DNA of 64,000 bases from an uncultured Gemmatimonadota bacterium (GCA_913043255.1 CAJWLK010000001.1:324288-388287), one strand, 5' to 3'. Shown: positions 18,987-57,256, counted from the stretch's first letter. A program made the numbers and translations. The notes: generated by a model from the letters alone, not told the origin.

Positions 18987-19038
18987 GAATTAAAGGGTTT
19001 AGGGTGACCAAAGGATGCTACGGTAGATAGTCCTATAG

Positions 19039-19512: not shown

Positions 19513-19513
19513 T

Positions 19514-24133: not shown

Positions 24134-24200
24134 CGCCGATCTTTAAGAATCACTCGGCGCCATATCACACCTACTTTTATAAAGTCGGACTGCAGTATTT

Positions 24201-31511: not shown

Positions 31512-32306
31512 ATGGCTAATAAGCTGATCAAGTACGGAGTTGAGGACGGTGTCGCAATCCTAACGATTGATGACCCTCCTGCGAACACCTACACATATGA
31601 AATGATGCAAGATCTAGATGACGCTATCCTGCAGGCCCGTTTCGATGAAAATGTCCATGTGATCGTACTTCGTGGGGGTGGGGAAAAGTTCTTTTCTGCC
31701 GGAGCGAACATCAATATGCTCCAAACCTCCGACCCTTACTTTAAATACTTCTTCTGTCTACACGCGAATGAAACACTCACCCGTCTCGAACAAACACCCA
31801 AACTGGTGATTGGCGCACTCAATGGACATACAGTCGGGGGTGGCCTTGAGATTGCGCTTGCTTGTGATATTCGGATCGCCCGAAAAGATGCGGGTAAAAT
31901 TGGCCTTCCAGAGGTCAACTTGGGCGTGCTACCAGGTACCGGCGGAACCCAGCGACTTGGCCGAATCCTTGGAAAGTCTAAGTCGATCGAGCTTATGGTA
32001 GAGGGACGCACGTTTGGGTTTAGTGAGGCGCTCGAGCTAGGGCTCATAAACAAGATTCTCGAAGGCGACAATGAAGAATTCTTTAGCCAAGTAATGGAAT
32101 ACGCGAAGCAGTTCACACCACCCCATAAAGCTTCCCGTGCGGTAGGTCGAATCAAACGATCTGTTTGTAGTGGTACCGAGGTTCCCTTCTCCGAGGGCCT
32201 CGCAATCGAGCGCGAACTTCAGCAACTTTTGTTCCAGGGAGAGGACGCTAAAGAAGGTCTCGCAGCCTACACCGAGAAGCGGAATCCCACTTTCACTGGA
32301 AGATAG
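31512..32306 (+). CDS. enoyl-CoA hydratase/isomerase (crotonase) family protein
   Basis: Crotonase motifs are present: FSAGANINML, GGGLEIALACDIRIA and GLPEVNLGVLPGTGGTQRL. Confidence 0.85.
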   Translation: MANKLIKYGVEDGVAILTIDDPPANTYTYEMMQDLDDAILQARFDENVHVIVLRGGGEKFFSAGANINMLQTSDPYFKYFFCLHANETLTRLEQTPKLVIGALNGHTVGGGLEIALACDIRIARKDAGKIGLPEVNLGVLPGTGGTQRLGRILGKSKSIELMVEGRTFGFSEALELGLINKILEGDNEEFFSQVMEYAKQFTPPHKASRAVGRIKRSVCSGTEVPFSEGLAIERELQQLLFQGEDAKEGLAAYTEKRNPTFTGR

Positions 32307-32333
32307 GGCTGTGCCAACTAGCGAGTCCATCGC

Positions 32334-33551
32334 GTGAATCCGAACGACCGCGACCCAGTCATCATCGACGCCGTCCGCACTCCTGTCGGGCGGGCGGGCG
32401 GCGCCCTTTCTTCGGTACGTCCGGACGACCTGCTCGCACATACGATTCGCGAATTGATCAGGCGAACGGGCATCCCAGCAGATCGTATCGAGGACATCAT
32501 CGCTGGTTGTACGAACGGTGCAGGTGAAGACAACCGCAACGTAGCAAGGATGGCGGGCCTACTCGCCGGACTACCCATCGAGGTGCCCGGACAAACTGTG
32601 AACCGACTCTGTGGCTCCGGTTTGCAGGCTGTGGTGTCCGCGGGGCACGCCATCCAGGCTGGTGCAGGTGATGTCTTTATTGCAGGGGGTGTGGAGAGCA
32701 TGTCGCGAGCACCCTGGGTCATGCTCAAGCCAACAACCGGATTTTCACGTGTTCCTCCACCCGTAGCAGATACAACTGTGGGCTGGAGGTTCACAAATCC
32801 AACCATGCCCAAATCTTGGACGATCTCATTGGGCGAAACGGCGGAAGTCGTCGCTGAACAGAGTTCGGTGAGTCGTGAGGATCAAGATGCATTCGCCCTT
32901 GAAAGCCAACAGCGAGCTGTTCGAGCCATTGAGGAGGGGCGGTTTATTGATGAAATCGTCTCCATTGACATACCACAGCGTAAAGGTGCTCCAATAACCG
33001 TTGACCACGATGAACACCCCCGGCCTGATCTTACGCTCGAAAAGCTCTCAACGCTCCGACCAGCCTTCCGTGATAATGGCACTGTCACTGCGGGTAACGC
33101 TTCTGGCATCAACGATGGTGCAGCTGCACTTCTTATAACAAGTCGGACCGCCGCGGAGGAACTAGGCTTTCGCCCGATGGCCCGACTTGGATCGTCCGCC
33201 GTCGTTGGGGTGGACCCCGCACATATGGGATTGGGGCCAGTTCCCGCGACCCGTAAAGCACTCCAACGCGCCGGCCTTTCGGTTGACGATCTTGATCTAA
33301 TTGAAATCAATGAAGCCTTCGCAGCCCAAGCGCTTCCTTGCATCGAGCAGCTTGGTTTTGATCCAGAACGAACTAACGTGAATGGTGGCGCCATTGCACT
33401 TGGCCATCCGCTTGGGTGTACCGGAGCTAAACTCATCACCACACTCACGCACGAACTCCGACGTCGCGGCGCATCAATTGGCCTCGTCACAATGTGCATT
33501 GGAGTCGGGCAAGGAATCGCTCTCGTCGTACATATGGAGGATCCCGCGTGA
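32334..33551 (+). CDS. acetyl-CoA C-acyltransferase (thiolase), 3-oxoadipyl-CoA thiolase-like
   Basis: Thiolase motifs are present: [12 protein letters not shown] (active-site Cys), NEAFAAQAL and [11 protein letters not shown]. Confidence 0.85.
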
Positions 33552-34366
33552 GCAATCCGCAGGTTCTCATCGAAGTCAACGAGGGGATCGGGACGCTGAC
33601 CCTCAACCGCCCCGAGAAGCTCAACTCGTTCATCGGAACTATGCGAGATGAGATCGCAAATGGTATCGACAAATTGTCCAGAGACGAGTCAGTGCGGTGC
33701 GTCATTGTGACAGGAGCAGGCCGTGCTTTCTGTGCGGGTGCTGACGTCACCTATCTGACCAAGCTCATAGAGACACAGGCTGTCGACGAAGCGATCGCAC
33801 TTGTGGAAGCCGGACGCCAAGTCACAACAGCTATTCGAGAGATGCCAAAGCCAGTGATTGCAGCGATCAATGGTGCTGCAGCGGGTGGAGGAGCCAACAT
33901 GGCTTTGGCTTGTGATCTAAGAATCGCAGCGGAAAACGCTTCCATTGGGCAGACGTTCAACCGCATCGGCCTACACCCTGACTGGGGTGGAACCTATGCA
34001 GTTCCGCGTCTCGTCGGGCCAGCCCGAGCAGCCGAACTATTCTTCTTTGCCGAGATGGTCCCCGCCTTAGAAGCTGAGAGAATCGGGCTCATTAATCGTG
34101 TGGTACCGCCAGAAGCCTTGATGCCCACGGCGCATGAATGGGCAGCACATTTAGCCGCCAAGCCTCCCCTTGCCATACAGTTGGCCAAGCAAGCGATTCA
34201 GTTGAGTCTCAACTCAAGTTTTGAAGAAATGCTCAACTATGAAACCGAAGCCCAGCGAGCCTGCTTCAAGTCTGAGGACGCACTTGAGGGCGTGCGCGCG
34301 TTCATCGAAAAACGCGAACCAAGATTCAGTACAGGACAGTCATCCAATTTGGCTTCTGGAGGTTAG
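33548..34366 (+). CDS. enoyl-CoA hydratase/isomerase family protein
   Basis: Crotonase motifs are present: [10 protein letters not shown] and [15 protein letters not shown]. The start is probably GTG at about 33548, overlapping the thiolase stop as GTGA. The track ATG at 33494 would give a 58-nt overlap. Confidence 0.75.
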
Positions 34367-34443
34367 AAAATGAAGGTAGAGGTGGGACCTTGTGATCCAC
34401 ATTGGTACCATCTATCGGTCATTTCACAGGCAACCCCAAGTTC

Positions 34444-35301
34444 ATGAATCACGACACTCTAACCGTTATTGGTGCTGGAACCATGGGTCACGGTATCGCT
34501 CAAGTGGCAGCGATGGCGGGCTATGAGACTCGGCTTTTCGACCTGGAACCTGAGGCGCTTGAAGCTGCTCAAGTACGCATAGCGTCTAACCTAGCCAAAG
34601 GCATCAAGCGTGGTAAAGTCGACCCGAAAGAGATGGAACGCACACGTGATGCCCTATCGATGACCACTGACCTCGCCGAAGCAACCAATGGAGCTTCGGT
34701 CGTGATCGAAGCGGTTCCGGAGAAACTTTCACTCAAGCAAAACCTCCTACTTGAGTGCGCTAACTTAACAAGCCACGGTGTTCTTCTTGCGAGCAATACG
34801 TCTTCGTTATCGATCAGTCGGATTGCCCAGAAAGTTCCGTCGCCTGAGCGCGTGGTTGGCATGCACTTCTTCAACCCCGTGCACATCATGGAACTGGTCG
34901 AGATCGTTCAGGGAGAGGAAACCTCCTCGGAGACCGTGGAACGGGCACGGACCCTCACCAAGCACCTAGGTAAAACGCCTATCGTTGTGAAAGACTCTCC
35001 TGGTTTCGCATCGTCTCGACTCGGAGTGGCGATCGGTCTCGAGGCCATACGTATGGTTGAAGAAGGGGTCGCATCACCAGAGGACATCGATACTGCAATG
35101 ATGTTAGGGTATCGCTATCCAGTCGGGCCCCTCAGGCTGGGAGATCTCGTGGGTCTCGATGTGCGGCTGGATATTGCGCAACATCTATTCGAGGAGCTCA
35201 ACTCGCCAAGATTCAAACCCCCTGCCTTGCTTGAGCAAATGGTACGAGAAGGAAAGCTCGGAAAGAAGAGCGGTGAAGGCTTCTATCGATGGGAAGACTG
35301 A
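34444..35301 (+). CDS. 3-hydroxyacyl-CoA dehydrogenase (HBD/PaaH-like), NAD-binding
   Basis: LTVIGAGTMGHGIAQV is the Rossmann motif. The 3HCDH_N and C domains are present. The start was moved to the internal Met (MNHDTL). Confidence 0.8.
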   Translation: MNHDTLTVIGAGTMGHGIAQVAAMAGYETRLFDLEPEALEAAQVRIASNLAKGIKRGKVDPKEMERTRDALSMTTDLAEATNGASVVIEAVPEKLSLKQNLLLECANLTSHGVLLASNTSSLSISRIAQKVPSPERVVGMHFFNPVHIMELVEIVQGEETSSETVERARTLTKHLGKTPIVVKDSPGFASSRLGVAIGLEAIRMVEEGVASPEDIDTAMMLGYRYPVGPLRLGDLVGLDVRLDIAQHLFEELNSPRFKPPALLEQMVREGKLGKKSGEGFYRWED

Positions 35302-35468
35302 CCCCGTTCTAGTTACTTGCGCAGAGCCCTCTACACACTCGACCTTCCACGATCAACCTTACCTCTGATGGAATTCTGATTGGAATGTGCGATGTTCCGT
35401 GGACCACAGAACGTCAAACCCCTAACTATACTTTAGAGGACGCAGCCCAGTATTGAGGAGAACGTAAC

Positions 35469-36842
35469 ATGAACGATATACAGACTATTGAGCCTAAAGT
35501 TGAGGATCCGATCAAGGATTCTGCATCCAACAATGAGGGGTCTATGAAACCGCAATCATCGGGAAGGGAGAGCCAGTCACAACAGGGCGATTATTTGTAC
35601 CCATGGGTACGACCGTATTACGAGGATCCACTTGTAATGTCCTCCGCAGAGGGTGTGTGGGTCCGCGATGTAGACGACAATCAATTCCTAGACCTATTCG
35701 CGGGGATCCTAACAACATCAATCGGACACTGCCATCCAGTGGTTCAAGAAGCGGTACACGAACAAATGGCGCGTCTCGGACATACTTCGACGCTGTACAT
35801 TACCGAGGGGCAGATCGAAGCTGCAAAATCTCTCGCACAAATAACACCAGGCGAATTGCAGACGACCTGCTTTACTAACAGCGGCACTGAAGCGGTTGAG
35901 TCTGCGATCGCTACAGCCCGCCTCTATACCGGCCGTCACGAGATCGTGGCACTTCGTCTTTCGTATTCGGGTCGTAGCACACTGACGAGTCACATGACCG
36001 CACAAAGGGCTTGGCGACTCCCATTTGGCGGGGCTTCAGGAGTCGTCCATGCTCGCTCACCATATCCGTATCGGTCACCAGTTGGAGATGGGGCCGAGTG
36101 CAGCGACTTCTTTATCGACGACCTGGTCGAGGTAATCGAAACTACCACCGGCGGTCAACCCGCCGCCTTCTTCGCTGAAACGATCCAAGGGGTAGCCGGA
36201 TACATTGTTCCACCCCCTGACTATTTTCAGCGTGCAGCCGAAGTCATTCGAAGTTATGGAGGGCTTTTCATCATCGATGAGGTACAGGCAGGCTTCGGAA
36301 GAACGGGGAAACACTGGTTCGGCATAGAGCACTGGGATGTTGAACCCGACATCATGGTCATGGCCAAAGGCATCGCAAATGGGTTCCCTGTCGGAGCAAC
36401 TGTCACCCGCCCCGAGATAGCGGAAGCATGGCAAGGACCGTCGATCGCAACCTTTGGGGGCAATCCAATCGCGATGGCCGCGATGAGAGCTACCCAAAAT
36501 GTAATGAATCGTGAGGACGTTCCAACACGAGCCCACGAGAGAGGAACTCAGCTGCGGCTTGGGCTGGACCAGCTTCGCGACAAGTATTCCTGGGTTGGTG
36601 AGGTTCGAGGAATGGGGCTCATGCAAGGGATCGAACTAGTGACCGATCGAGCCACCAAAACCCCAGATGGGGGCCGGGCAGAAAAACTCCTTGAGGCAAC
36701 CAAAGAGGAAGGTTTACTGGTTGGACGTGGAGGACTCTTCGGCCATGTAATACGGGTTGGCCCTTCACTCCTCATCACAGAAGACGAAATCGAAGAGGCG
36801 TTAAAACGTTTCGGGGCCGCATGTGAACGAGTAGACGGATGA
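35469..36842 (+). CDS. class-III (omega) PLP-dependent aminotransferase with about 50-aa low-complexity N-terminal extension
   Basis: The conserved core is LVMSSAEGVWVRDVDDNQFLDLFAGILTTSIGHCHP ... DEVQAGFGRTGKHW ... MAKGIANGFP, with the PLP lysine in MAKG. The RBS GAGGAG precedes the ATG. Confidence 0.8.
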   Translation: MNDIQTIEPKVEDPIKDSASNNEGSMKPQSSGRESQSQQGDYLYPWVRPYYEDPLVMSSAEGVWVRDVDDNQFLDLFAGILTTSIGHCHPVVQEAVHEQMARLGHTSTLYITEGQIEAAKSLAQITPGELQTTCFTNSGTEAVESAIATARLYTGRHEIVALRLSYSGRSTLTSHMTAQRAWRLPFGGASGVVHARSPYPYRSPVGDGAECSDFFIDDLVEVIETTTGGQPAAFFAETIQGVAGYIVPPPDYFQRAAEVIRSYGGLFIIDEVQAGFGRTGKHWFGIEHWDVEPDIMVMAKGIANGFPVGATVTRPEIAEAWQGPSIATFGGNPIAMAAMRATQNVMNREDVPTRAHERGTQLRLGLDQLRDKYSWVGEVRGMGLMQGIELVTDRATKTPDGGRAEKLLEATKEEGLLVGRGGLFGHVIRVGPSLLITEDEIEEALKRFGAACERVDG

Positions 36843-36969
36843 TTGCCGGCCTCTCTTGGCAAACGTGGCTCCTTGCCGCTGCCGCTGTGATTCCTGGACT
36901 TGCTATCACTTTCAGCTTCTACCATGTCCAAAGAGACCGTGCTGCGGACAGATCCGAAGGCCCTGAAGT

Positions 36970-37887
36970 GTGAATCGACTTGAAGGGCGGACCGCAATTG
37001 TTACTGGGGCCGGACGCGGTATTGGACGAGAGCATGCTCGGGCACTGGCAAGCGAAGGCGCAGCCGTAATCGTCAATGATCTAGGCACAGAAGTGGATGG
37101 GAACGGTACAGAATCAAAGCTGGCAGACCGTGTCTGCGAAGAGATTTGTTCAAGCGGTGGTAACGCCATTCCTAGCCGACACGATGTGTCAGATTGGCAC
37201 CAAGCGAGCCAGCTTATCGATCTCGCCATCTCCTCGTTCGGCGGACTCGACATCCTTGTAAATAATGCCGGGATACTTCGAGATCGCGCTTTTTTCAACA
37301 TGAGTGAAGACGAATGGGACGCGGTAATTACTGTACACCTAAAAGGTCATGCCGCACCTAGCCGACACGCGATGGCATATTGGCGCACGGAGTCCAAGGC
37401 AGGCCGATCGCGACTAGCCTCGGTTATCCACACCACCTCATCATCTGGCTTGTGTGGCAACTTCGGTCAAGTCAACTACGGTGCTGCGAAGATGGGTATC
37501 GTGGGTCTATCAAAGGTCCTATCGATCGAAGGCATAAAATACGGGGTGCGTTCGAACGTGATCTCACCATCCGCACGCACTCGTATGACCGATCAACAGG
37601 CTGGAGCCGAGATATTGGGCGAGCCTGATGAGACTGGATATGATCCCTACGGTGCCAAACACATCGCGATCGTGGCAGCCTGGCTAGCTGAGGCCAATTG
37701 CCCGGCAAACAACCAGGTATTCCACGTTTCCGGTCGCCGGATCAGCGTACTCGAGATTCCTCGAATTTCCTATGAGGTCCGGTCAGAATTAGCAGACTGG
37801 ACGCCTGAGGGGCTCAGTGAAGCACTGATCGACGGACTGGTATCGCCACTCGGAGCATATGAGCTGATTCTGGGGAGAGAATTCTGA
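36970..37887 (+). CDS. SDR family NAD(P)-dependent oxidoreductase (MFE-2-like hydroxyacyl-CoA dehydrogenase type) with C-terminal extension
   Basis: TAIVTGAGRGIGRE (TGxxxGxG) and YGAAK (YxxxK) are present, as is an NNAG motif. Confidence 0.8.
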   Translation: MNRLEGRTAIVTGAGRGIGREHARALASEGAAVIVNDLGTEVDGNGTESKLADRVCEEICSSGGNAIPSRHDVSDWHQASQLIDLAISSFGGLDILVNNAGILRDRAFFNMSEDEWDAVITVHLKGHAAPSRHAMAYWRTESKAGRSRLASVIHTTSSSGLCGNFGQVNYGAAKMGIVGLSKVLSIEGIKYGVRSNVISPSARTRMTDQQAGAEILGEPDETGYDPYGAKHIAIVAAWLAEANCPANNQVFHVSGRRISVLEIPRISYEVRSELADWTPEGLSEALIDGLVSPLGAYELILGREF

Positions 37888-37892
37888 CCAAG

Positions 37893-38366
37893 TTATGTTG
37901 CCACCATCTTTTTTAGCGCCATAATCACCCCAGTATGTATTCCCTCATGAAACTGATTGAAAATAACGCCGTCCTCAAACGTATTTAGTTCAAGTCCAGT
38001 CGATGTACTGTAGCCTTGGTAATCGACAAAAAGACCAGCTTCCAGATCTTCTTTGAACCGACCGGGCAACTCTCGAACGAATGCCTTGATCTGTATGATA
38101 TCCGGCGTCGACTGCCAATCGGCCGGTGAGGTTCCTCCGCGAAACTCAGCAATAAACTCATCTGACACATACATATCCAATCCAGACAGCTTATAGGTCA
38201 GTAGCTGCTGTGCTGCCACAATGTGCCCGAGATTCCACAAGATATTATTTGAATAGCCAGCGGGGACGACGCACAGAGCATCATCGTTCACGTCATCAAT
38301 CAATCTCTCAAGTAACGCACGTTCCTGCTTGTGCAACATCGCAGCGTTGTTAAGCCTATTGGTCAT
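37893..38366 (-). CDS. DinB/YfiT-like putative metal-dependent hydrolase family protein
   Basis: 157 aa. WNLGHIVAAQQ is the DinB_2-type His-containing helix. It is convergent with the SDR gene. Confidence 0.55.
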   Translation of the reverse strand: MTNRLNNAAMLHKQERALLERLIDDVNDDALCVVPAGYSNNILWNLGHIVAAQQLLTYKLSGLDMYVSDEFIAEFRGGTSPADWQSTPDIIQIKAFVRELPGRFKEDLEAGLFVDYQGYSTSTGLELNTFEDGVIFNQFHEGIHTGVIMALKKMVAT

Positions 38367-38465
38367 ATAATCTCCAGTACTCGATCACGCCACAATTCCG
38401 CAGGAGAGAACTTGCGGAGTACGTGTCCAGGGGGGGAATTTACAGTCAGTCTAGGAGGCAACATA

Positions 38466-39371
38466 ATGGGAAGCATACGATACATTGTCACGACCTTTAC
38501 CACATTTTTACTTGTACCGATCGTCGTGTCAGCCCAAGCGACCAGCCAAGACCTAACCCCTGAGCAGCGTGCCCGAATGCAGATGGAGCGCGAGACTCGA
38601 GTAGCCGCAGAACTCATTTCACGTCGACCAATCGAAGCCCTGAACTCCATCTGGATTGAAGAACTGACCTGGATGGAAGTCCGCGACCTACTCCAAACTG
38701 GCACAAATACGGCAATCATATCCACGGGCGGAATCGAGCAGAATGGACCATACGTCGCGACCGGCAAGCATAATTATGTGCTTGAGGGCACATGCGAAGG
38801 GATCGCGTTGAAACTCGGGAATGCGCTTTGCGCTCCCATTATGAAGCTGGTTCCGGAAGGAGACATCGACGAACCGTCTGGCCACATGCGGTACTCAGGT
38901 ACGATCTCACTGCGCCAGGAAACATTTGAAGCGGTGCTCGAAGATGTCGCCTCAAGTCTTGAAGCCCACGGGTTTGAACATATTGTATTTATTGGGGACA
39001 GTGGCGGGAACCAGCGCGGCATGGAAAACGTCGCGAGAACACTTAATGAACGTTGGCACAAGGCACACGCACATTTTATCCCCGAATACTACCAATACGG
39101 CGGATCCGAATTCCTCGAGTCTGAGTTGGGCATCGTACAAACCGAAAACGATGGAATACACGACAGCTTCGGCATTACCAGTCTAATGATGGTCATTGAC
39201 CCTACGGTCGTTCGTTACACGCAGCGCGTGGACGCCGGGCTTGCTAAGATCAATGGGGTCCCTATAGCACCCAAGGAAGAGACGATCGAGGTCGGCAAGA
39301 AACTCATGGCGTTTCGGGTCAACCTGACCGTAGACAAGATCCACGAATCGATTGCTAAAACAAAACCGTAA
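38466..39371 (+). CDS. creatininase-family amidohydrolase (creatinine amidohydrolase/MftE-like fold) with N-terminal signal peptide
   Basis: The start is at the internal ATG (38466), preceded by AGGAGG. The N-terminus MGSIRYIVTTFTTFLLVPIVVSAQA is signal-like. STGGIEQNGPYVATG matches the creatininase GSxEQHGPHLP segment, with Q/N substitutions. HIVFIGDSGGNQ matches the second metal-binding block. Confidence 0.6.
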   Translation: MGSIRYIVTTFTTFLLVPIVVSAQATSQDLTPEQRARMQMERETRVAAELISRRPIEALNSIWIEELTWMEVRDLLQTGTNTAIISTGGIEQNGPYVATGKHNYVLEGTCEGIALKLGNALCAPIMKLVPEGDIDEPSGHMRYSGTISLRQETFEAVLEDVASSLEAHGFEHIVFIGDSGGNQRGMENVARTLNERWHKAHAHFIPEYYQYGGSEFLESELGIVQTENDGIHDSFGITSLMMVIDPTVVRYTQRVDAGLAKINGVPIAPKEETIEVGKKLMAFRVNLTVDKIHESIAKTKP

Positions 39372-39401
39372 AATGCGTCGGCACCAGGTGAGAAAACACC
39401 C

Positions 39402-41822
39402 ATGAAAAAACTTGCGACCATCATCCCTCTAGCACTGTTGTTGGGATTCGGCTTAGGGATTTCATCCGAACCACCGGTATTCAGACCAGGCAGTCTTAGC
39501 GCACGAGAGTTTTCTCCAGATACGCTTCCCCAAACAATCGTCAGGGAAGTGTGCTCCCAGTGTCATAACGATCAACGCCTACGAGGGAACCTTTCGCTCG
39601 AAACTTTCAACGTGGAAACGGCCGACACCCAGCCGGAAATTTCTGAAAAAATGATCCGAAAACTGAGGGCTGGGATGATGCCTCCGCCTGGTGTACGTCG
39701 ACCAACCGAAGCCAACCTTCTTGACCTCGTGGAGGCACTAGAAGCACGAGTAGATGCCCGTGCCTCTGTGCAACCAAACCCGGGGCATCGAAGTTCTCAA
39801 CGACTTAACCGATCAGAATATGAGCGATCAATTAAGGACTTGCTCGGAATCGACATTGATGCTTCCGCCTATCTTCCTAACGAGACGGTCAGTGCAGGAT
39901 TCGACAACATAGCTGACGTACAAGATCTCTCGGCGACGTTAATCAACGGTTACCTGACTGCCGCAAGCGAGATTAGTCGGATAGCTCTCGGAGACCCCGA
40001 CGCAACACCGAGCGAAACGGAATACGAGGTGCCACGGTATGCAGAGCAACGTCAGCACGTTGAAGGGGCACCAATCGGCACACGGGGAGGTCTCTCAATT
40101 GTCCATAATTTCGTAGCAGACGGCGAATACCTGTTTCGTATTGCATTCCAGCATGAATCGACCGGAAACTTTTTCGGTCAAACAACCCCATTTGATGAAC
40201 AAGTCGAACTCTCTATCGACGGCGAACGCCGAGCATTGATGGACATCGATCGTTGGATGCACCGTCAGGATCCGGATGGCGTTCAGATCGAAACGGGGCC
40301 AATAGCAGTGACAGCTGGGCCACATCGAGTCTCGGCAGCTTTCATCAAACGGTTTGACGGACCCTTGGATGATCTGATGTCTCCGCATGAATGGAGCCTC
40401 GCAGATAAAAAGATTGGGTATTCACACGGCATTACAGTCGTAGCACATCTGCGAGACCTTACAATTCGAGGGCCTTTCCGAGTTACTGGAGCCTCTGATA
40501 TATCGAGCCGTAGGCAGATCATGACCTGCGAACCAGAGTCTCCCGATGAAAGTCGCGCTTGTGCTCAAACAATCATTGAGCGGCTTGCGACCCAGGCTTA
40601 TCGGCGTCCATTGAATACAGAGGACATAGAACCGCTTCTCACGCTATATGAGTTAGGGGCGGAGGACGATGGTTTTGAAGCTGGGGTCCGTACAGCACTT
40701 CAGGGAATACTTGCCAGCCCCGACTTTGTATTCCGGTTTGAAAAACCTCCCACAACAGGGCAGGAGGAAGACACCTATCGAATCTCCGACCTCGACCTAG
40801 CATCACGGCTCTCGTTCTTCTTGTGGGCCATGCCTCCGGATAAAGAACTAATTGAGGCCGCTCGGACCGGACAACTATCCGAAATCGAAGGTCGTACAGC
40901 ACAGGTCCGACGCATGCTCGCCGATCCTCGAGCTGAGGCACTCGGTTCTAGGTTCGCTGATCAGTGGTTTCGATTGCAGGACCTCGATAAAGTTCACCCA
41001 GACGCAATTCGCTTCCCCGACTTCTACCAACAGCTTGCGGACGACATGCGCCGCGAGACCCAGCTCTTTTTCGAACACTTAGTCCGGGAAGACCGACCAT
41101 TTTTCGAGTTGTTCACTGCGGGCTATACATTCGTAAACGAACGACTCGCGCGGCATTATGGGATGGAGAACATTTCTGGAACACACTTCCGCTTGGCTCA
41201 ATATCCAGATGAGAGTCGGCGTGGCATTCTGGGACATGCGAGTATACTTACGCAGACCTCACATGCAAATCGTACATCCCCAGTGTTACGTGGGAAGTGG
41301 GTGATGGAAGTACTGTTCGGGACTCCTCCTCCTCCCCCACCACCGGACATACCCGACCTCGAAGCTACCGTAGAATCAGAAGCGGGCCGATTTCTTACTA
41401 TACGTGAGCGAATGGAGATGCACCGAAAAAGCCCTGCGTGTCGCTCGTGCCACCGTGTTATCGATCCACTTGGCCTGGCGTTAGAGAACTTTGACGTAAC
41501 TGGTGCGTGGCGCATTAAAGACCAAGGACAAGTGGTCGACCCGACGGGTGAACTATATGACGGCACGTCGATGAACGGCCCCGTGGATCTCCGGGCAGCC
41601 CTCTTACGCCGTCCAGAGTCATTGGTTCGGACGTTCCTCGAAAATCTGCTGGCCTACGGACTCGGGCGTCGCATTGAATATTTTGACATGCCAACAATCA
41701 GAGCAATCGCGCGAAAAGCGGAAATGGATGAATATCGGATGTCCGCCTTCATACTGGGGGTCGTAAACAGTCCAGCTTTCCTCATGAATCGACGCGAGGC
41801 CATGGTCGAACAAGGCGGGTAA
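39402..41822 (+). CDS. DUF1592/DUF1587/DUF1588/DUF1585-type protein with two c-type haem-binding CxxCH motifs (Planctomycete-type cytochrome c protein)
   Basis: 806 aa with a signal peptide. The N-proximal haem motif is CSQCH and the C-proximal one is CRSCHRVIDPLGLALENFD. Family-typical blocks are present: LSFFLWAMPPD, GILGHASILTQTSHANRTSPVLRGKW and the poly-Pro GTPPPPPPPD. Confidence 0.75.
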   Translation: MKKLATIIPLALLLGFGLGISSEPPVFRPGSLSAREFSPDTLPQTIVREVCSQCHNDQRLRGNLSLETFNVETADTQPEISEKMIRKLRAGMMPPPGVRRPTEANLLDLVEALEARVDARASVQPNPGHRSSQRLNRSEYERSIKDLLGIDIDASAYLPNETVSAGFDNIADVQDLSATLINGYLTAASEISRIALGDPDATPSETEYEVPRYAEQRQHVEGAPIGTRGGLSIVHNFVADGEYLFRIAFQHESTGNFFGQTTPFDEQVELSIDGERRALMDIDRWMHRQDPDGVQIETGPIAVTAGPHRVSAAFIKRFDGPLDDLMSPHEWSLADKKIGYSHGITVVAHLRDLTIRGPFRVTGASDISSRRQIMTCEPESPDESRACAQTIIERLATQAYRRPLNTEDIEPLLTLYELGAEDDGFEAGVRTALQGILASPDFVFRFEKPPTTGQEEDTYRISDLDLASRLSFFLWAMPPDKELIEAARTGQLSEIEGRTAQVRRMLADPRAEALGSRFADQWFRLQDLDKVHPDAIRFPDFYQQLADDMRRETQLFFEHLVREDRPFFELFTAGYTFVNERLARHYGMENISGTHFRLAQYPDESRRGILGHASILTQTSHANRTSPVLRGKWVMEVLFGTPPPPPPPDIPDLEATVESEAGRFLTIRERMEMHRKSPACRSCHRVIDPLGLALENFDVTGAWRIKDQGQVVDPTGELYDGTSMNGPVDLRAALLRRPESLVRTFLENLLAYGLGRRIEYFDMPTIRAIARKAEMDEYRMSAFILGVVNSPAFLMNRREAMVEQGG

Positions 41823-41840
41823 GCAAGGAGATCGCAGACG

Positions 41841-43229
41841 ATGGAAGTCATAATTGGAAAACACATACCACGTCGTACGTTTTTACAAGGTATCGGAGCC
41901 ACGATCGCGCTTCCCTTCCTCGATGCGATGATTCCGGCGGGGCGCTTGTCGGGGCTAAGTGCGGCGATCGATCCCACTCGCCTCATATGTATTGAAATGG
42001 TACATGGGGCTGCGGGCAGTTCTCAGTACGGCGCTTCCCGTAACCTATGGTCACCTGCAAGTACGGGACGAAATTTCGATTTGGCCCCGACTGCACTCAG
42101 CTCACTCGAGCCGTTCCGAAAGTATCTAACCATCGTTTCCGATACCGATGTGAGCTCCGCAGAGGCAACCAAACCTCAAGAAATTGGTGGAGATCATTTC
42201 CGCTCAAGTGCAACTTTTTTGACACAGTCCCACCCCCGGCAAACTGAGGGTTCGGATATTTATGTAGGGACGTCAATGGATCAGTTATACGCAGCGCAAT
42301 TTGGGCAAGAGACACCTATCCCATCGATGCAACTCTGTATAGAAAACGTAGACCAATCAGGTGGCTGCGCATACGGTTATGCGTGCGTCTACACGGACAC
42401 AATCAGCTGGAAATCCCCCACGGAACCACTACCGATGATTCGGGATCCGCGCGTCGCATTTGACCAGCTGTTCGGGGCGGGCGGGAGTGCTGAGGAACGC
42501 GCAATCCGACGACGTGCTAACAAGAGCGTGCTAGACTTCATAGCCGATAGAGTACGCGAACTTAAGCGTGAACTTGGCCCGGACGATTCGAGACGAATCG
42601 ACCGATACCTAGAGAGCGTACGGGAAATTGAACGTAGGATTGAGATGGTCGAGATACAGAATAGTAATGGGGAACTGCGAGAGCTTCCAGAAGCACCAGC
42701 CGGCGTCCCTGATTCCTTTGAGGAACACGTGAAGCTGATGTTTGATTTACAGGTGCTCGCATTCGCTTCTGATATGACTCGTGTATTCTCCTTTAAGCTT
42801 GGTCGTGACTCTTCCGCACGAGTATTCCCTGAGAGTGGCGTGGACAAACCATTCCATCCAACCTCCCACCACGGAGGAAACGAAAAAAACATCGAAGACT
42901 TTGCACGGATCAACCGATACCATGTGAGCATGATTCCATACCTATTGGGCCGTTTAGAGGACACAATGGAAGGTGATACTCACCTGCTCGATAAGACGAT
43001 GATCATATATGGTTCGCCAATGGGAGATCCGAACGTACATAACCACAAACGCTGCCCCCTTTTCATAGCAGGAGGCGCGAATGGAAAACTAGACGGTGGC
43101 ATTCATGTTCGAGCGAAACCGGACACTCCGATGGCGAACGTGATGTTGACACTGATGCACACACTTGGGCTTGAAGAAATGGCAAGGTTTGGTGATAGCA
43201 CCAAACCTTTTTCACTAAATACCTGGTGA
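41841..43229 (+). CDS. DUF1552 domain protein with twin-arginine (Tat) signal
   Basis: The N-terminus IPRRTFLQGIGATIALPFLDAMIP is the hallmark DUF1552 Tat-signal block. It starts 18 nt after the DUF1592 stop. Confidence 0.75.
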   Translation: MEVIIGKHIPRRTFLQGIGATIALPFLDAMIPAGRLSGLSAAIDPTRLICIEMVHGAAGSSQYGASRNLWSPASTGRNFDLAPTALSSLEPFRKYLTIVSDTDVSSAEATKPQEIGGDHFRSSATFLTQSHPRQTEGSDIYVGTSMDQLYAAQFGQETPIPSMQLCIENVDQSGGCAYGYACVYTDTISWKSPTEPLPMIRDPRVAFDQLFGAGGSAEERAIRRRANKSVLDFIADRVRELKRELGPDDSRRIDRYLESVREIERRIEMVEIQNSNGELRELPEAPAGVPDSFEEHVKLMFDLQVLAFASDMTRVFSFKLGRDSSARVFPESGVDKPFHPTSHHGGNEKNIEDFARINRYHVSMIPYLLGRLEDTMEGDTHLLDKTMIIYGSPMGDPNVHNHKRCPLFIAGGANGKLDGGIHVRAKPDTPMANVMLTLMHTLGLEEMARFGDSTKPFSLNTW

Positions 43230-43236
43230 TCGCAAG

Positions 43237-45015
43237 ATGCATATAAGCATGCGAATCCGGACTTTCATAACCGCTTTCCTAATAAGTGTTTGGGCCTCGG
43301 AAGCCGCATCTTATAATGACCCGGATGTATCTGAGACTCCACTTGCCGATGCTGCTATGCGTGGCGATGTGACAAGTGTCCAACGACTTCTTGAAGCGGG
43401 TGTTAATGTAAACGAAGCTCAGGGTGATGGTATGACCGCACTTCACTGGGCTGCTCGCAATTCCGATGCTCAGCTGGCAGAGCTTTTGGTCTCAGAGGGG
43501 TCTAGGGTCAATACGGTTACGAGGATTGGAGCGTACACTCCCCTCCATCTCGCCAGTCAAGTCGGGAATGCCGAAATCATCAAAATCTTACTGGGAGCAG
43601 GAAGTCTCCTACAACCGACAAGTAACTCGGTAGGCGGAACGATGCCCCTGCACTTTGCAGCTGCGTCGGGGAGCGTCGGTGCGGTACGTGCACTCCTTAA
43701 TGCTGGCGCACAACCAAATGTGATCGAAGCCACATGGGGTCAAACCCCGCTTATGTTCGGAGCAGCTAAGGGACGGACTGATGTCGTTCGTGTTCTACTT
43801 GAAGGCGGGGCGAACCCAGCCATCACGACCAAAGTCACAAACATCGCAGCCAAAGCAGAACAAGCACAGGAAGAACGACGAGCTCGGAATGCACGTATTC
43901 GAAAAACACCACCCACGGGCCAAAACTTACTAGGACAGACTGGAGTAAAGGCAGGTCAAGTTGAGCAACTTCTAACTATTGAGGAGCAGGAAGAATACGA
44001 TCGACCAATTGAAGAGCCTGAACCCCTTAGTTATGGCCAATTGATCGGAAGGCATGGAGGTATGACCGCCCTGCTCCACGCTGCCCGTGAAGGTCATATC
44101 GGCACAGGGATGGCACTCCTAGATGGCGGCGCAGACATTAATCAGACAAGTGGAAGTGACCGGACCAGTCCGATGTTGATGGCAATGATTAACGGGCACT
44201 TTGATATGGCCATACAACTCTTGAGGCGTGGAGCAGACCCTACGGTCGCATCTGAGGCGGGTGCAACACCACTTTACGCAGCAATCAACGCTCAGTGGTC
44301 ACCAAAATCACGTTACCCGCAACAACACGCGTCCCAACAACAAAAGGTGACCTATCTAGAGGTAATGCAAAGATTATTAGAAGCTGGTGTCAACCCAAAT
44401 GTAAAGCTCAAAAAGCACCTGTGGTGGATGTCGTTCAACTTCGATCTTCTTCAAATCGATACCAAAGGAGCCACACCATTTTGGCGCGCAGCCTACGGAC
44501 TAGATGTGAATGCTATGCGCCTTCTTGTTTCGTATGGCGCCGATCCAAACATCGCTACGGAAAAAGTCCCACCGCGACGCAGGCCGGTGTGGGACCAGGA
44601 GAGTAAAGACCTGTCGGGGTTCCCTCCAACCCCGATCGGAGGGCCAGCCGACTACCCTATTCACGCAGCATCTGGAATCGGCTATGGACAAGGTTTCCCG
44701 AGTAATGCACACCGTTATGTGCCGGATGGTTGGATGGCTTCAGTCAAGTATCTGATTGAAGAACTTGGAGCCGACGCCAATCAACGAGATGACGAGGGCT
44801 ACACGCCACTTCACAATGCCGCTTCTCGAGGAGATGTTGAAATGATCCGTTATCTAGTTGAGCATGGTGCTGACGTCACCGCGGTCAGTCGAGTGGGACA
44901 AACAACAGCTGACATGGCCAACGGACCTTATCAGAGGACGCAACCATTTCCTGAGGCAGTAGCACTCTTAGAAAGTCTAGGATCAAAAAACAACCATAAC
45001 TGCGTGTCTTGCTAA
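43237..45015 (+). CDS. secreted ankyrin-repeat protein
   Basis: 592 aa with a signal peptide (FITAFLISVWASEAAS). Multiple 33-aa ANK repeats are present (GMTALHWAARN, TPLHLASQVGN, MPLHFAAASGS, TPLMFGAAKGR, TALLHAAREGH, TPLHNAASRGD). The two ANK blocks are split by a charged linker. It starts 7 nt after the DUF1552 gene. Confidence 0.85.
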   Translation: MHISMRIRTFITAFLISVWASEAASYNDPDVSETPLADAAMRGDVTSVQRLLEAGVNVNEAQGDGMTALHWAARNSDAQLAELLVSEGSRVNTVTRIGAYTPLHLASQVGNAEIIKILLGAGSLLQPTSNSVGGTMPLHFAAASGSVGAVRALLNAGAQPNVIEATWGQTPLMFGAAKGRTDVVRVLLEGGANPAITTKVTNIAAKAEQAQEERRARNARIRKTPPTGQNLLGQTGVKAGQVEQLLTIEEQEEYDRPIEEPEPLSYGQLIGRHGGMTALLHAAREGHIGTGMALLDGGADINQTSGSDRTSPMLMAMINGHFDMAIQLLRRGADPTVASEAGATPLYAAINAQWSPKSRYPQQHASQQQKVTYLEVMQRLLEAGVNPNVKLKKHLWWMSFNFDLLQIDTKGATPFWRAAYGLDVNAMRLLVSYGADPNIATEKVPPRRRPVWDQESKDLSGFPPTPIGGPADYPIHAASGIGYGQGFPSNAHRYVPDGWMASVKYLIEELGADANQRDDEGYTPLHNAASRGDVEMIRYLVEHGADVTAVSRVGQTTADMANGPYQRTQPFPEAVALLESLGSKNNHNCVSC

Positions 45016-52106: not shown

Positions 52107-53378
52107 CTATCGTTGAATCGTTCGGTAACGACCCAGATTTCGATAGCGTTCAAAAAGCCTCTCCTGCCGACTGTCATCTGGAAGCTCTTGCCCGCTGATG
52201 AACACGTGTTCCACTGAAGTCGACAGTTCAAACGGATCGCCTGACCAAACAACTAAATCGGCGACCTTTCCATTCTCGAGACTTCCCATTTCATTCTCCA
52301 AGCCCCAAACCGTAGCTGGCGCGAGCGTCACAGCCCTGAGCGCACCCGCGTGGGTCATTCCATTGGCAACGGCCAGACCGGCACTGTGACTAATCCCTCT
52401 GTCACCAGTTAGGAGCACTTCAACGCCAGCTCTTTCAAGGATTCCCGCATTCTCAAGAGAAGCGCCTAGACCATCGAACGTCGGCAAATTCGAGGGCACA
52501 TTCAATATCACAGGGACATTTGCTGCCGCGAGTTCATCGGCAACGCGCCAAGCTTCAGCACCCCCTAAAATGACCAGGCTGATCTCAAACTCTTCCTTGA
52601 GCTTGAGTGCAAGCCTCAAATCGCTAGCGCGATTCACCGTCACCACTATCGGTATCTGACCTGAAATGACTGCTTCAACGACCTCAAGCTCACGATCTGT
52701 CAAACTTGAGCGACCACCCTCAGCGAAGGGGTCCTCGTTATCATCGTTTTCGTCATGCTCTAAGGTTCTCGCCCGAGCATCCCACAGAGCATCATGGAGA
52801 CGCCGATAGTTCGCAGCTCGCGAGCCACCCGCACGTGAAGATCCACTCTCTCCCATCGCAGTGTACACCGCCACCGACTCGCTACGGAGCATAGCGTCAA
52901 GTGTTTCACCATAAAGAGCTATAACCGCACCTTGTCCTGTGAATAACTGATCACCACCGGGGACCACTACAACCGAAGTCAACCCGCGGATCCGAGCGAC
53001 CGGTATAAATGTGTTGGCTGGATTGACTGCCCACACCGGATTAAAAGAAGCACCGATATCCTCTTCACTCGTGGCAGCATCTTGTGAAGCACGCCCAAGC
53101 TCACGTAAGCCAAGTCCGGACGAAGAATCCATGAATCCTGGTGTGACCACCTTTCCTGTACCGTCTATAGTCCGGGCTCCAGATGGGACTGAAACATTCG
53201 AACCTACCGCTGTGATTCGACCATCTCGAACCACTATTGTTCCCCCATGAATCACTCCACTTGAAACCGTATGAATTTCTGCGTTTGTAATGGCGACCGT
53301 TTGAGCCAAGGTTGGCAGGGCAAACGCACCCATAAACACAATTAGCACCACGCTCATAAGACAGTTCGGGCGACTCAT
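52107..53378 (-). CDS. amidohydrolase-family protein, secreted, apparently lacking the HxH metal-binding motif (degenerate paralog)
   Basis: 423 aa with a signal peptide. At the position of the TIM-barrel HxH motif it has PGFMDSSSGLG. Downstream metal ligands are also sparse. Otherwise the fold is colinear with the adjacent paralog. Confidence 0.7.
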   Translation of the reverse strand: MSRPNCLMSVVLIVFMGAFALPTLAQTVAITNAEIHTVSSGVIHGGTIVVRDGRITAVGSNVSVPSGARTIDGTGKVVTPGFMDSSSGLGLRELGRASQDAATSEEDIGASFNPVWAVNPANTFIPVARIRGLTSVVVVPGGDQLFTGQGAVIALYGETLDAMLRSESVAVYTAMGESGSSRAGGSRAANYRRLHDALWDARARTLEHDENDDNEDPFAEGGRSSLTDRELEVVEAVISGQIPIVVTVNRASDLRLALKLKEEFEISLVILGGAEAWRVADELAAANVPVILNVPSNLPTFDGLGASLENAGILERAGVEVLLTGDRGISHSAGLAVANGMTHAGALRAVTLAPATVWGLENEMGSLENGKVADLVVWSGDPFELSTSVEHVFISGQELPDDSRQERLFERYRNLGRYRTIQR

Positions 53379-54769
53379 CGTCCCACCTCCTGATCCATTC
53401 GCACCATGAAATCACCAAAAATGATCGGATCTGGCGCATTTCGATCGTACATCAGTGCGCCATCAATGAAGACGTTTTCAGCATGCGTGTAAACGCTGAA
53501 GGGATTTCCTGTCCAGATCACAATATCCCCCATCTTCCCTTCCTCGATCGACCCCGTATGACCATCAATCCCCATAGACTTAGCAGGATTAGAAGTGATC
53601 CAGCGGATTGCTTCTTCATACGAGATGTCAATTCCTTCCTCACGTACAGCTCGAAGCGCAATAGCCGAGTGTTGGTTTAGTCGTTGGATCTCAACCGGGG
53701 AGTCAGAATGCACGATCGCACACGCACCCGCCTCATGAACAAGCCCAACGTTTTCCTCTATACCATCCCACGCCTCAAGCTTGAAACCCCAATTACCAGA
53801 ACCCCACATGGATGCACAGATCTCGTTTTCAGCCAAGTAATCGCGAACTTTGTACGCGGATACTGCGTGATGGAAAGACGCAATTGAATAACCAAACTCA
53901 TTGGCGATGTTAATCATGTTGACCATCTCATCGCCCCTGTAACAATGGTTGTGTACACGCACTTCACCCACGAGGACCGCCGCGAGAGTCTCCAGTTGAA
54001 GGTCACGTTCGGGCATATCAACAGGAACCGATCCACTATCCCACCACTGCTGCCAATCGCGTAGGTATTTCTGCGCCTTAATCCAACCCATTCGGTAGCC
54101 AGCACCGTTCCCCATAGCAGAACTAGGAGCTCGACCCAAGCCGCCGTAAACTCGTTTAGGATTCTCTCCACAGGCCATCTTTAGAGCATGTGGCGCGTTC
54201 GGGAACTTCATTCCTTGAACTGTCCGAGAGGGTACATTCTTGAGTGTGACGCCACGCCCCCCAAATAAATTTCCCGAGCCAGGCAAGATCTGAAGGGTGG
54301 TCACACCACCCGCGAGTGCGTACCCAAAACCGGGGTCTTGAGGCCATACCCCGTGCTCAGCCCACACCTCGGCCGTATTCGGGTCAGTCATCTCGTTCCC
54401 GTCCTGTTGGGACTCGATCCCTGGTGAAGGATAGTTCCCAAGGTGTGAATGTGTGTCGATAACACCCGGAGTAACCCACTTGCCAGAAGCGTCAATCACA
54501 GTTGCACCCGTTGGCACATTTACGTTTGTACCAACCACAGTGATCACTCCACCTTTCATCAGAATTGAACCGCCATCGATACGCTGACCAGTACCTGTCA
54601 GAATCGTTGCGTTCTCAATGACCGTTGTCCGTGACGGAAACGGTTCGTACGTCGAGGGAAAGGGATCAGGAAAGAACGAACCCTGTTGACCCGCAATCGT
54701 CCCAGGTATGCCGACGATGACTGCAAGCACCCAGGGGATAGGCATATGCTTCACATAGTTACTGCGCAT
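53375..54769 (-). CDS. amidohydrolase-family metallo-hydrolase, secreted (intact HxH motif)
   Basis: 464 aa with a signal peptide. PGVIDTHSHLG (HxH) is present. Conserved K/H/H/D ligand positions are present (KMACGENP, VHNHCYRGD, IVHSDS). Its stop overlaps the next gene start (4 nt). Confidence 0.8.
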   Translation of the reverse strand: MRSNYVKHMPIPWVLAVIVGIPGTIAGQQGSFFPDPFPSTYEPFPSRTTVIENATILTGTGQRIDGGSILMKGGVITVVGTNVNVPTGATVIDASGKWVTPGVIDTHSHLGNYPSPGIESQQDGNEMTDPNTAEVWAEHGVWPQDPGFGYALAGGVTTLQILPGSGNLFGGRGVTLKNVPSRTVQGMKFPNAPHALKMACGENPKRVYGGLGRAPSSAMGNGAGYRMGWIKAQKYLRDWQQWWDSGSVPVDMPERDLQLETLAAVLVGEVRVHNHCYRGDEMVNMINIANEFGYSIASFHHAVSAYKVRDYLAENEICASMWGSGNWGFKLEAWDGIEENVGLVHEAGACAIVHSDSPVEIQRLNQHSAIALRAVREEGIDISYEEAIRWITSNPAKSMGIDGHTGSIEEGKMGDIVIWTGNPFSVYTHAENVFIDGALMYDRNAPDPIIFGDFMVRMDQEVGR

Positions 54770-54983
54770 GGCGACCTCCTACTTTGGTTGCGTATTTCCT
54801 AATGGGAGCTTATGTGCGAGCCTAGTGAAGCGGAAGCCAAGTGACTTGAGCCGACAATCAACGCATACTCATGGAAGTAAGCTGAGGCACCACCCATCAT
54901 CTCGTCTGAACTTCAACCCATCCCATGGAAGCGCGATGCGTCAGGAGGACAGAAAGAACCCTGCCTGCGGGAAGGGACGCCCG

Positions 54984-55718: not shown

Positions 55719-55720
55719 CA

Positions 55721-57214: not shown

Positions 57215-57256
57215 GAACGTGCAGCAGAACAAACAAAAAAGTGTAAGGAGCGAGGG

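Follow-up and report, generated by a model that had tools for sequence, protein, structure and literature searches.

What do four tandem genes of an uncultured Gemmatimonadota bacterium have to do with one another, and which of them form a unit? The genes occupy positions 38,466 to 45,015 of a 64,000-nucleotide stretch of DNA (GCA_913043255.1 CAJWLK010000001.1:324288-388287), here called the window. All lie on the plus strand, with intergenic gaps of 30, 18 and 7 nt, and they encode a creatininase-fold protein (gene 1), a DUF1592-family protein (gene 2), a DUF1552 protein (gene 3) and an ankyrin-repeat protein (gene 4). An initial annotation, made from the sequence, had given the layout, the four families and the export of every product. 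We reproduced the coordinates exactly, and Pfam profile searches confirmed the family of each open reading frame (ORF). Export is likewise predicted for all four, from a twin-arginine translocation (Tat) motif in gene 3 and from signal-peptide-like N-terminal regions in genes 1, 2 and 4 and most of their homologs, the latter judged by a crude hydrophobicity heuristic only.

The locus is an exported three-gene module, DUF1592, DUF1552 and ankyrin in that order, co-inherited in Gemmatimonadota and Acidobacteriota, and the conserved unit is three genes rather than four. A survey with one genome per species gave 80 loci (the clade loci; individual loci are cited by L numbers) whose DUF1552 proteins are about 64-78% identical to that of the window. 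By record title, 53 are from Gemmatimonadota and 21 from Acidobacteriota (mostly Vicinamibacterales), while 6 are either unclassified or under other labels, which are probably due to mis-binning. The DUF1552 subfamily concerned spans 64-80% identity. ORF-level BLAST comparison of these loci covered 107 full-length DUF1552 genes in total. An ankyrin gene resembling gene 4, an ortholog of about 600 residues, lies directly 3' of DUF1552 in 105 of 105 testable cases; the remaining two DUF1552 genes are on contigs that stop there. DUF1592 lies directly 5' of DUF1552 in 103 of the 107, and the four exceptions comprise two contig ends and two loci reordered as TonB-dependent receptor (TBDR), SusD, DUF1552, ankyrin, DUF1592. 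Median gaps in the clade are 30 nt between DUF1592 and DUF1552 and 17 nt between DUF1552 and ankyrin.

Two or three complete trios stand in tandem at 19 clade loci. When paralogous trios are compared, the nearest neighbor by DUF1552 and the nearest neighbor by ankyrin are the same trio in 31 of 38, and the pairwise distances of the two proteins are correlated (Spearman 0.69), which argues that trios were duplicated and inherited as units. In a reciprocal look-up, all five ankyrin homologs taken, at 59-62% identity, sit directly after a DUF1552 gene. The arrangement recurs across hundreds of genomes and is thus not a product of chance, and the genes around it vary among lineages (for example IleRS, the pseudouridine synthase RluD and peptidases in L008-L010). 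The initial annotation had counted both the ankyrin gene and the creatininase-like gene as members of the unit. Adjacency, co-duplication and the reciprocal look-up bear out the first of these; fixed membership of the second fails, since a creatininase-family gene is found within 10 kb of the trio in only 16 of the 80 clade loci, at variable place and strand.

Beyond the clade the third gene is seldom present. A second survey took 80 distant loci, chosen by a shared CDSGYSCAY motif, whose DUF1552 shares about 35-44% identity with the window's protein. DUF1592 is upstream of DUF1552 in 33 of the 36 that could be tested. Of 46 downstream positions only 3 hold an ankyrin gene, and of 22 upstream positions only 2. 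The ankyrin proteins of this survey are shorter (about 450 residues) and lack the C-terminal Cys motif described below. A further case is L091, where a DUF1552 gene at 44% identity is followed by an ankyrin gene; distinct ankyrin genes stand beside distant pairs in L059/L076, L118, L153, L160 and others as well. Clustering of the genes flanking distant pairs found no dominant partner family. Ankyrin partners are recurrent yet clade-specific, and the core pair mostly works without one. Two Vicinamibacterales loci, L059 (15725-21374) and L076 (15072-21377), hold a second module composed of a metallo-β-lactamase (MBL)-fold hydrolase, an ankyrin protein of about 500 residues ending in ...MMCHAxxGxLVRCAG, DUF1592 and DUF1552 (40% identity); this module is likewise led by a hydrolase, of a different superfamily.

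The creatininase-like gene shows a looser association. It is directly adjacent to the trio in about 10 loci, on either strand and either side. The arrangement is operon-like, on the same strand, in the window's lineage, twice in L020, and in L083 and L085; the gene is divergent in L016, L023 and L052, and 3-5 kb off in L040, L067, L078 and L090. In Palauibacter relatives it is parted from the pair by two inserted, unrelated genes (L007) or by 5.6 kb (L172). The ortholog of gene 1 in L173 has no trio within 8 kb, and that in L174 faces a trio 4.5 kb away. No creatininase-family gene was found among the 80 distant DUF1552 loci. In the window's lineage, the synteny of gene 1 with an upstream block of aminotransferase and short-chain dehydrogenase/reductase (SDR) genes is no weaker than its synteny with the trio, and in the Palauibacter relatives it remains with that block. 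When the ORFs flanking the 80 clade loci were all clustered without bias, the creatininase family ranked as the most frequent neighbor, tied with SusD-like proteins at 16 loci each, which makes a loose functional link plausible, and a second creatininase subfamily occurs near trios in L055, L073, L079 and L083. We read gene 1 as a facultative, loosely linked periplasmic hydrolase that is operon-adjacent in this lineage.

Gene 1 matches Creatininase (PF02633) with E = 2.6e-30 and scores far below the NCBIfam equivalog cut-offs (TIGR04448, 48.9 against 235; TIGR03964, 38.1 against 172; NF041098, 33.7 against 245). It aligns with the solved creatininases 3no4, 1q3k and 1j2t across its N-terminal half. 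The canonical binuclear metal ligands we take to be E34, H36, D45, H120 and E122 of the Pseudomonas putida enzyme; by alignment to 1q3k and 3no4, gene 1 keeps the first as E91 and has N93, H102, S179 and G181 at the others. This altered pattern is conserved across the gene 1 family, all of whose members have N-terminal signal-like regions. With four of five ligands replaced and scores so far under the equivalog cut-offs, a true creatininase was rejected as an identity for gene 1. Compared with the characterized creatininase-fold enzymes (creatinine amidohydrolase, EC 3.5.2.10; MftE; IolN), gene 1 meets only the broad PF02633 family, and it carries a predicted signal peptide where characterized members are cytoplasmic.

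Two observations concern the surroundings of the creatininase-like genes. Window positions 31512-37887 (plus strand) encode a β-oxidation set (enoyl-CoA hydratase, thiolase, a further enoyl-CoA hydratase and 3-hydroxyacyl-CoA dehydrogenase) followed by the class-III aminotransferase and the SDR, and this block keeps its synteny with the creatininase-like gene even in L172, where the trio is 5.6 kb away; gene 1 may belong functionally to it. In L173 (8001-10871) and L174 (793-8915), the non-adjacent genes of the gene 1 type lie near genes for an AhpC/Redoxin-type thiol peroxidase, a DsbD-like thiol-disulfide transporter and an MBL-fold hydrolase, neighbors that hint at a periplasmic thiol-redox context.

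The same clustering identified the other recurrent neighbors of the clade trios. SusD-like proteins (16 of 80 loci) and TBDRs (14 of 80) are followed by Peptidase_MA_2 and HpcH-aldolase-like proteins (10 loci each) and by M28 peptidases, a Zn-ribbon protein and DUF5916/CBM9 proteins (9 each). In L073 and L079 the order is TBDR, SusD, creatininase, HpcH, trio, M28. Glycoside hydrolases are absent from the recurrent neighbors.

Gene 3 is a member of HXXSHH/DUF1552 (PF07586; E = 7e-87, 292.3 bits against a cut-off of 30), a family of which our search alone recovered 13,604 clusters at 50% identity (E ≤ 0.001). Across 65 diverse DUF1552 proteins, R12 of the twin arginine is present in all and R11 in at least 90%, so the Tat signal that the initial annotation had put on this protein holds at the level of the motif. 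H119 and H400 are nearly invariant in the 65 sequences, which span 31-64% identity. In its structure model, gene 3 takes the core α/β fold of the alkaline-phosphatase superfamily, of the type seen in sulfatases and nucleotide pyrophosphatases/phosphodiesterases. The family motif HPTSHH together with H119, D396 and H400, residues that follow β-strands of the modeled fold, presumably forms a His-rich metal site, and DUF1552 is the presumed catalytic subunit of the module. The clade has a His after β-strand 1 (IEMVHGAAG) where the family, and with it the pair of Planctomycetes and Verrucomicrobia, has Asn (YVPNG). A coupling of this variant, His55, with the Cys tail of the ankyrin protein was considered and dropped, being clade-only and inseparable from shared ancestry. 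A separate pair of cysteines, C176 and C182 (window 42366-42386), reads GGCAYGYAC here and CDSGYSCAY in most of the family; it is nearly invariant family-wide and sits in a poorly modeled loop.

Gene 2 shows the Pfam order PSD3-PSD5-PSD4-PSCyt3-PSD2, with every domain above its curated cut-off: PSD3/DUF1587 (PF07626) at 73.7 bits, PSD5/DUF1595 (PF07637) at 71.8, PSD4/DUF1592 (PF07631) at 155.3, PSCyt3/DUF1588 (PF07627) at 120.8 and PSD2/DUF1585 (PF07624) at 83.7. N-terminal matches to PSCyt1 and Cytochrome_CBB3 fall under the cut-off. The DUF1587/1592/1588/1585 blocks read earlier from the sequence are thus present, and the two CxxCH motifs read there as haem c sites (CSQCH and CRSCH) are conserved in clade and distant relatives; each of 28 complete distant DUF1592 proteins has exactly two. 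M93, P94 and P95 (within GMMPPPG, residues 91-97) are invariant, and by analogy with class I cytochrome c the Met of this MPP is the likely axial ligand of the first haem. The structure model (predicted local distance difference test, pLDDT, 81.7; predicted template modeling score 0.82) suggests a signal peptide, a cytochrome c domain (residues ~42-123), a β-sandwich (~200-365) and a helical region (~368-800). The last of these corresponds to PSD5/PSD4/PSCyt3/PSD2, is all-helical in the model over about 430 residues, and bears the second haem motif. It has no analog in the PDB (Foldseek, nothing below E = 0.001), and profile searches of DUF1592 against solved structures returned chance-level matches only. 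At the start of PSD5, C376 and C387 (window 40527-40562, residues 376-387, TCEPESPDESRAC) are invariant in 100 of 100 relatives and probably form a structural disulfide.

Gene 4 matches Pfam ankyrin repeats with E = 2.6e-65 (Ank_2, 217 bits over 6 matched stretches; Ank, 201 bits). The repeats form two blocks separated by an unconserved linker (residues ~200-265), and the protein belongs to a full-length orthologous family at 58-70% identity. By the hydrophobicity heuristic, 103 of 120 homologs begin with a signal-peptide-like N-terminus. Members end in a conserved tail, NNHxCxSC at the carboxyl terminus, in which both Cys and the preceding Asn show at least 95% identity over 75 clade orthologs. 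The common variants all retain the end N-N-x-x-C-x-x-C; the His is usual and is sometimes N or D. Such a tail may serve as an arm for metal binding or thiol-redox chemistry. The features of the locus are collected in the table.

Table. Genes and sequence features of the locus, with positions counted from the first nucleotide of the window.
Feature	Position	Strand	Remarks
Gene 1, creatininase-fold protein	38466-39371	+	301 aa; ATG preceded by AGGAGG
Gene 2, DUF1592-family protein	39402-41822	+	806 aa; first gene of the trio
Haem c motif 1, CSQCH (aa 51-55), gene 2	39552-39566	+	conserved in 95/100 clade proteins and all 28 complete distant ones
β-sandwich (jelly-roll), CBM6/35/36-like, gene 2	39999-40496	+	predicted, from structure model
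Haem c motif 2, CRSCH (aa 680-684), within PSCyt3/DUF1588, gene 2	41439-41453	+	conserved in 100/100 clade and 28/28 distant proteins
Gene 3, DUF1552 (HXXSHH) protein	41841-43229	+	462 aa
Tat motif RRTFLQG (aa 11-17), gene 3	41871-41891	+	from sequence; twin arginine R11-R12
Family motif HPTSHH (aa 339-344), gene 3	42855-42872	+	H339 and H343 invariant in 65 sequences
Gene 4, ankyrin-repeat protein	43237-45015	+	592 aa; third gene of the trio
C-terminal tail NNHNCVSC-COOH (His + CxxC), gene 4	44989-45012	+	conserved in clade orthologs

He et al. 2017 (PMC5615132) noted the pairing of DUF1592 with DUF1552, whose domain definitions go back to Rhodopirellula baltica. As found in Planctomycetes and Verrucomicrobia, the pair shares the domain series, the two CxxCH motifs and a Tat-signal DUF1552 directly downstream; here, an ankyrin protein of about 600 residues is a fixed third gene and whole trios are tandemly duplicated. 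The initial annotation had described the pair as lacking an assigned biochemical function, which agrees with the searchable literature: it holds no functional study of DUF1552, DUF1592, DUF1553, DUF1501 or PSCyt3 and no mention of an ankyrin partner for DUF1592/DUF1552, and a paper on the ecogenomics of Palauibacterales does not mention the module. Against that literature, the fixed ankyrin gene with its His/CxxC tail, the tandem duplication of whole trios and the link to SusC/SusD-like genes appear to be new. So do the fold assignments, although structure databases may already list DUF1552 as alkaline-phosphatase-like.

Several known systems resemble the module in part. We know of no ankyrin association for the DUF1549/DUF1553 plus DUF1501 pair of bacteria of the Planctomycetes-Verrucomicrobia-Chlamydiae (PVC) group, whose DUF1501 member is presumably Tat-exported and sulfatase-like. 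That pair (PSCyt1/PSCyt2/PSD1 with DUF1501) has an analogous two-gene design, a large multi-domain cytochrome and a second protein (PMC5615132), and it consists of other Pfam families, absent from the window. Polysaccharide utilization loci follow a logic of SusC/SusD import and then periplasmic enzymes; relatives of the trio match this at the 16 (SusD-like) and 14 (TBDR) loci given above, and the window has neither gene. AnkB-type ankyrin proteins are small and serve a catalase. As in AnkB-KatB of Pseudomonas aeruginosa, Cj1386-KatA of Campylobacter jejuni and AnkB-CatB of Xanthomonas oryzae, an exported ankyrin protein is encoded beside a haem protein, and in those systems the ankyrin is needed for the full activity of the haem partner or for haem delivery, as reviewed in PMC10294975. 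The ankyrin protein of the trio is by comparison about 600 residues long, has two repeat blocks and the His/CxxC tail, and is strictly co-encoded with its haem protein. The latter is a c-type cytochrome and is joined by a third partner, of predicted alkaline-phosphatase fold.

We put at roughly one in two the probability that the three products work on imported substrates as a single periplasmic complex, in which the ankyrin protein is the dedicated adaptor or chaperone. The proteins would come together in the periplasm, and their substrates would be small or oligomeric; in many relatives a SusC/SusD-like TonB-dependent transporter would bring these in. DUF1552 would fold in the cytoplasm, probably with its metals, before Tat export. 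It would be a metalloenzyme of the alkaline-phosphatase superfamily with a His-rich center (H119, H339, H343, H344, D396, H400 and H402), and the group that it cleaves or transfers would resemble a phosphate or sulfate ester. DUF1592 would supply a ligand-binding β-sandwich and two c-type haems. Through these haems the reaction might be coupled to the electron pool of the periplasm, whether because the substrate undergoes a redox step or because the metal center has to be held in its active state. The ankyrin protein would hold or mature the complex, by analogy with AnkB and the catalase KatB, and the creatininase-fold protein, where present, could trim compounds of this imported pool at an amide or lactam bond.

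Published observations are consistent with this proposal. Proteins of the PSCyt type sometimes bear carbohydrate-binding modules (CBMs), and genomes from the oxic layers of lakes are enriched in the genes for them (PMC5615132); a CBM2-DUF1592 protein of Cellvibrio was detected in a lignocellulose metaproteome (PMC6004670). Together these fit a role in turning over carbohydrate-like organic matter under oxic conditions. Catalases encoded alongside a periplasmic ankyrin protein are bound by it and are aided in activity or haem delivery (PMC10294975, citing PMC94626, PMC4325098 and PMC5795068).

A number of points weigh against the proposed complex. Gene order and co-duplication are the sole grounds for supposing that the three proteins interact physically, and the steps of the mechanism are drawn from sequence, models and gene context. 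The assignment of DUF1552 to the alkaline-phosphatase superfamily depends on a moderate model (pLDDT 66) in which loops around the presumed active site are poorly modeled. Compared with S1 sulfatases, nucleotide pyrophosphatases/phosphodiesterases and phosphoethanolamine transferases, DUF1552 has no detectable sequence similarity, neither the CxPxR formylglycine motif nor an identifiable Ser or Thr nucleophile, a long helical insertion (residues ~203-309) and an obligate cytochrome partner. A profile search against solved structures gave chance-level matches only, and a permissive Pfam scan found no sulfatase, phosphatase or DUF1501 match. The jelly-roll of gene 2 also resembles C1q/TNF-like proteins, so its CBM-like label is non-specific. 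The window has no SusC or SusD gene within about 15 kb, over positions between 23 and 59 kb. Most DUF1592/DUF1552 pairs lack an ankyrin gene, and the ankyrin protein therefore cannot be essential to the core chemistry. Enzymes of alkaline-phosphatase fold normally need no electron-transfer partner; a cytochrome beside such an enzyme is both the chief weakness of the model and its chief point of interest.

Rival readings differ mainly in what they make of the creatininase-like gene and of the ankyrin tail. The initial annotation had all four products as subunits of one periplasmic or outer-membrane redox/hydrolytic complex. If the subunits are obligate, such a complex could account for the narrow one-strand spacing behind a divergent upstream gene, for the same four-gene order in the close relatives L001-L006 and twice in tandem in L020 (with creatininase-like proteins 54-61% identical to gene 1), for the top rank of the creatininase family among flanking genes, and for the second subfamily near trios. 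We nonetheless regard it as improbable, because 64 of the 80 clade loci have no creatininase-family gene within 10 kb, the gene otherwise lies up- or downstream, on either strand or 3-5 kb off, the gene is separated from the pair in L007 and L172 and has no trio nearby in L173, the 80 distant loci have none, and the synteny of gene 1 in the window's lineage extends to the aminotransferase/SDR block. The outer-membrane location finds no support. Exceedingly unlikely is a secreted "eukaryote-like" host-interaction effector that merely adjoins the pair. In sponge symbionts, ankyrin proteins are interpreted as effectors aimed at the host, some relatives come from sponge-associated metagenome-assembled genomes (MAGs; SB06xx bins), and gene 4 has NCBIfam matches to Legionella Dot/Icm ankyrin effectors. 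Those matches reach about 100 bits against cut-offs of 450-1400 and reflect the repeats alone, and on that ground a Legionella-type effector was rejected. The trio moreover occurs in free-living marine, freshwater, soil and sediment lineages of Gemmatimonadota and Acidobacteriota, and the 105 of 105 adjacency, the short median gap and the co-duplication tie the ankyrin gene to the pair.

The remaining readings give the conserved tail a specific task. C-terminal His/Cys tails are typical of metallochaperones, and the ankyrin protein may be a maturation factor only, a haem or metal chaperone that loads DUF1552 or DUF1592 through its tail. The high conservation of NNHxCxSC and the rarity of ankyrin genes beside pairs elsewhere fit such an accessory role, and a precedent is Cj1386, which traffics hemin to KatA (cited in PMC10294975). 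On the other hand, each tandem trio retains its own ankyrin paralog, only about 60% identical to its neighbor's, which better fits a specific stoichiometric partner; haem c is attached by Ccm or Ccs, the export of DUF1552 through Tat points to metal loading in the cytoplasm, and distant ankyrin partners lack the tail, so that we hold this role to be unlikely. A carrier of the Sox type is very unlikely. Here the terminal Cys of the ankyrin tail would hold a covalent intermediate, DUF1592 would attach the substrate oxidatively as SoxAX does, and DUF1552 would hydrolyze it off in the manner of SoxB. Measured against the generally known composition of Sox, the parts run parallel: a two-haem cytochrome c, a Tat-exported metallohydrolase and a conserved Cys at the extreme C-terminus. 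Yet SoxY, SoxAX and SoxB are unrelated to the trio in sequence or fold, the predicted DUF1552 fold is not that of SoxB, the tail reads NNHNCVSC and not GGCGG, and Pfam and NCBIfam matches of the window genes include no Sox family; an ankyrin gene or any other evident carrier is missing from the great majority of pairs, and the distant ankyrins have no Cys tail. We attach a low probability to a redox-coupled version of the complex, in which the alkaline-phosphatase-fold metalloenzyme, wired to the two-haem cytochrome, would cleave imported organic esters or glycans in a redox-coupled and not purely hydrolytic way, as a periplasmic enzyme system of a kind not recognized before, and the His/CxxC arm of the ankyrin protein would serve as a mobile redox or carrier element, a logic comparable to that of SoxY or of cytochrome-fed lytic polysaccharide monooxygenases. 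If it were true, DUF1592/DUF1552 would represent a new oxidative route for organic matter in aerobic Gemmatimonadota, Acidobacteriota and PVC bacteria.

The preferred reading, a three-protein complex with the ankyrin protein as adaptor or chaperone, bears on a very large bacterial family, DUF1552 with DUF1592, that has no assigned function. The strictly conserved three-gene form defined here offers a new handle on that family. Predicted folds accompany it: alkaline-phosphatase for DUF1552 and, for DUF1592, a new helical haem domain besides a cytochrome c domain and a CBM-like sandwich. The link to TonB-dependent uptake genes gives it a physiological context. Cultured members of the phyla concerned include Gemmatimonas and Vicinamibacter. 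Annotators should not assume by default that an ankyrin protein in a symbiont MAG from one of these phyla is a host-interaction effector. Published counts for the related PSCyt families give dozens of copies per genome in some lineages and abundance in soil, freshwater and marine heterotrophs.

Public gene calls on marine metagenome contigs 100% identical to the locus, including a TARA scaffold, agree with the coordinates in the table except for gene 4, which they start at the ATG at 43249 to give 588 residues. A longer gene 1 beginning at a GTG (ORF 38331-39371) was rejected: it has no Shine-Dalgarno sequence and overlaps the DinB region, and the public calls use 38466. A DinB_2 gene (37893-38366) lies upstream of gene 1 on the opposite strand, so any transcript of the locus must begin at gene 1; an ABC-F ATPase gene on the plus strand comes 208 nt after gene 4. 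A promoter and terminator scan of the locus gave counts equal to those of shuffled sequence and is uninformative as to transcript ends. The nearest proteins belong to Gemmatimonadota MAGs labeled Longimicrobiales or Candidatus Palauibacter.

Some observations on the clade loci and on the wider window are of separate interest. L035, L037, L069 and L089 carry Gemmatimonadota-like trios, with DUF1552 66-69% identical to the window's, in MAGs labeled Gammaproteobacteria (sponge bins) or Candidatus Kuenenia stuttgartiensis; the contigs are probably mis-binned, and L035 and L037 are the two reordered loci. About 10 kb upstream of the module, on the minus strand, the window encodes a 1098-residue Sortilin-Vps10/BNR-repeat protein (25693-28989), and in L010 a similar gene (18035-19827) comes right after a creatininase gene beside a double trio. 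A pair encoding a FloA flotillin and an NfeD membrane protease is found at 23111-25628 (minus strand). What may be a separate cluster for uptake and hydrolysis spans 52107-58975, where a MORN-repeat gene (54768-55718) and a sodium:solute symporter gene (55721-57214) have three Amidohydro_1/3 genes around them. Public calls add a 44-residue ORF (L001 2999-3133, equivalent to window ~36839-36973) in the interval from the aminotransferase gene to the SDR gene; a 36-residue ORF is called at the same spot in L005, where the neighboring genes are about 75% identical.

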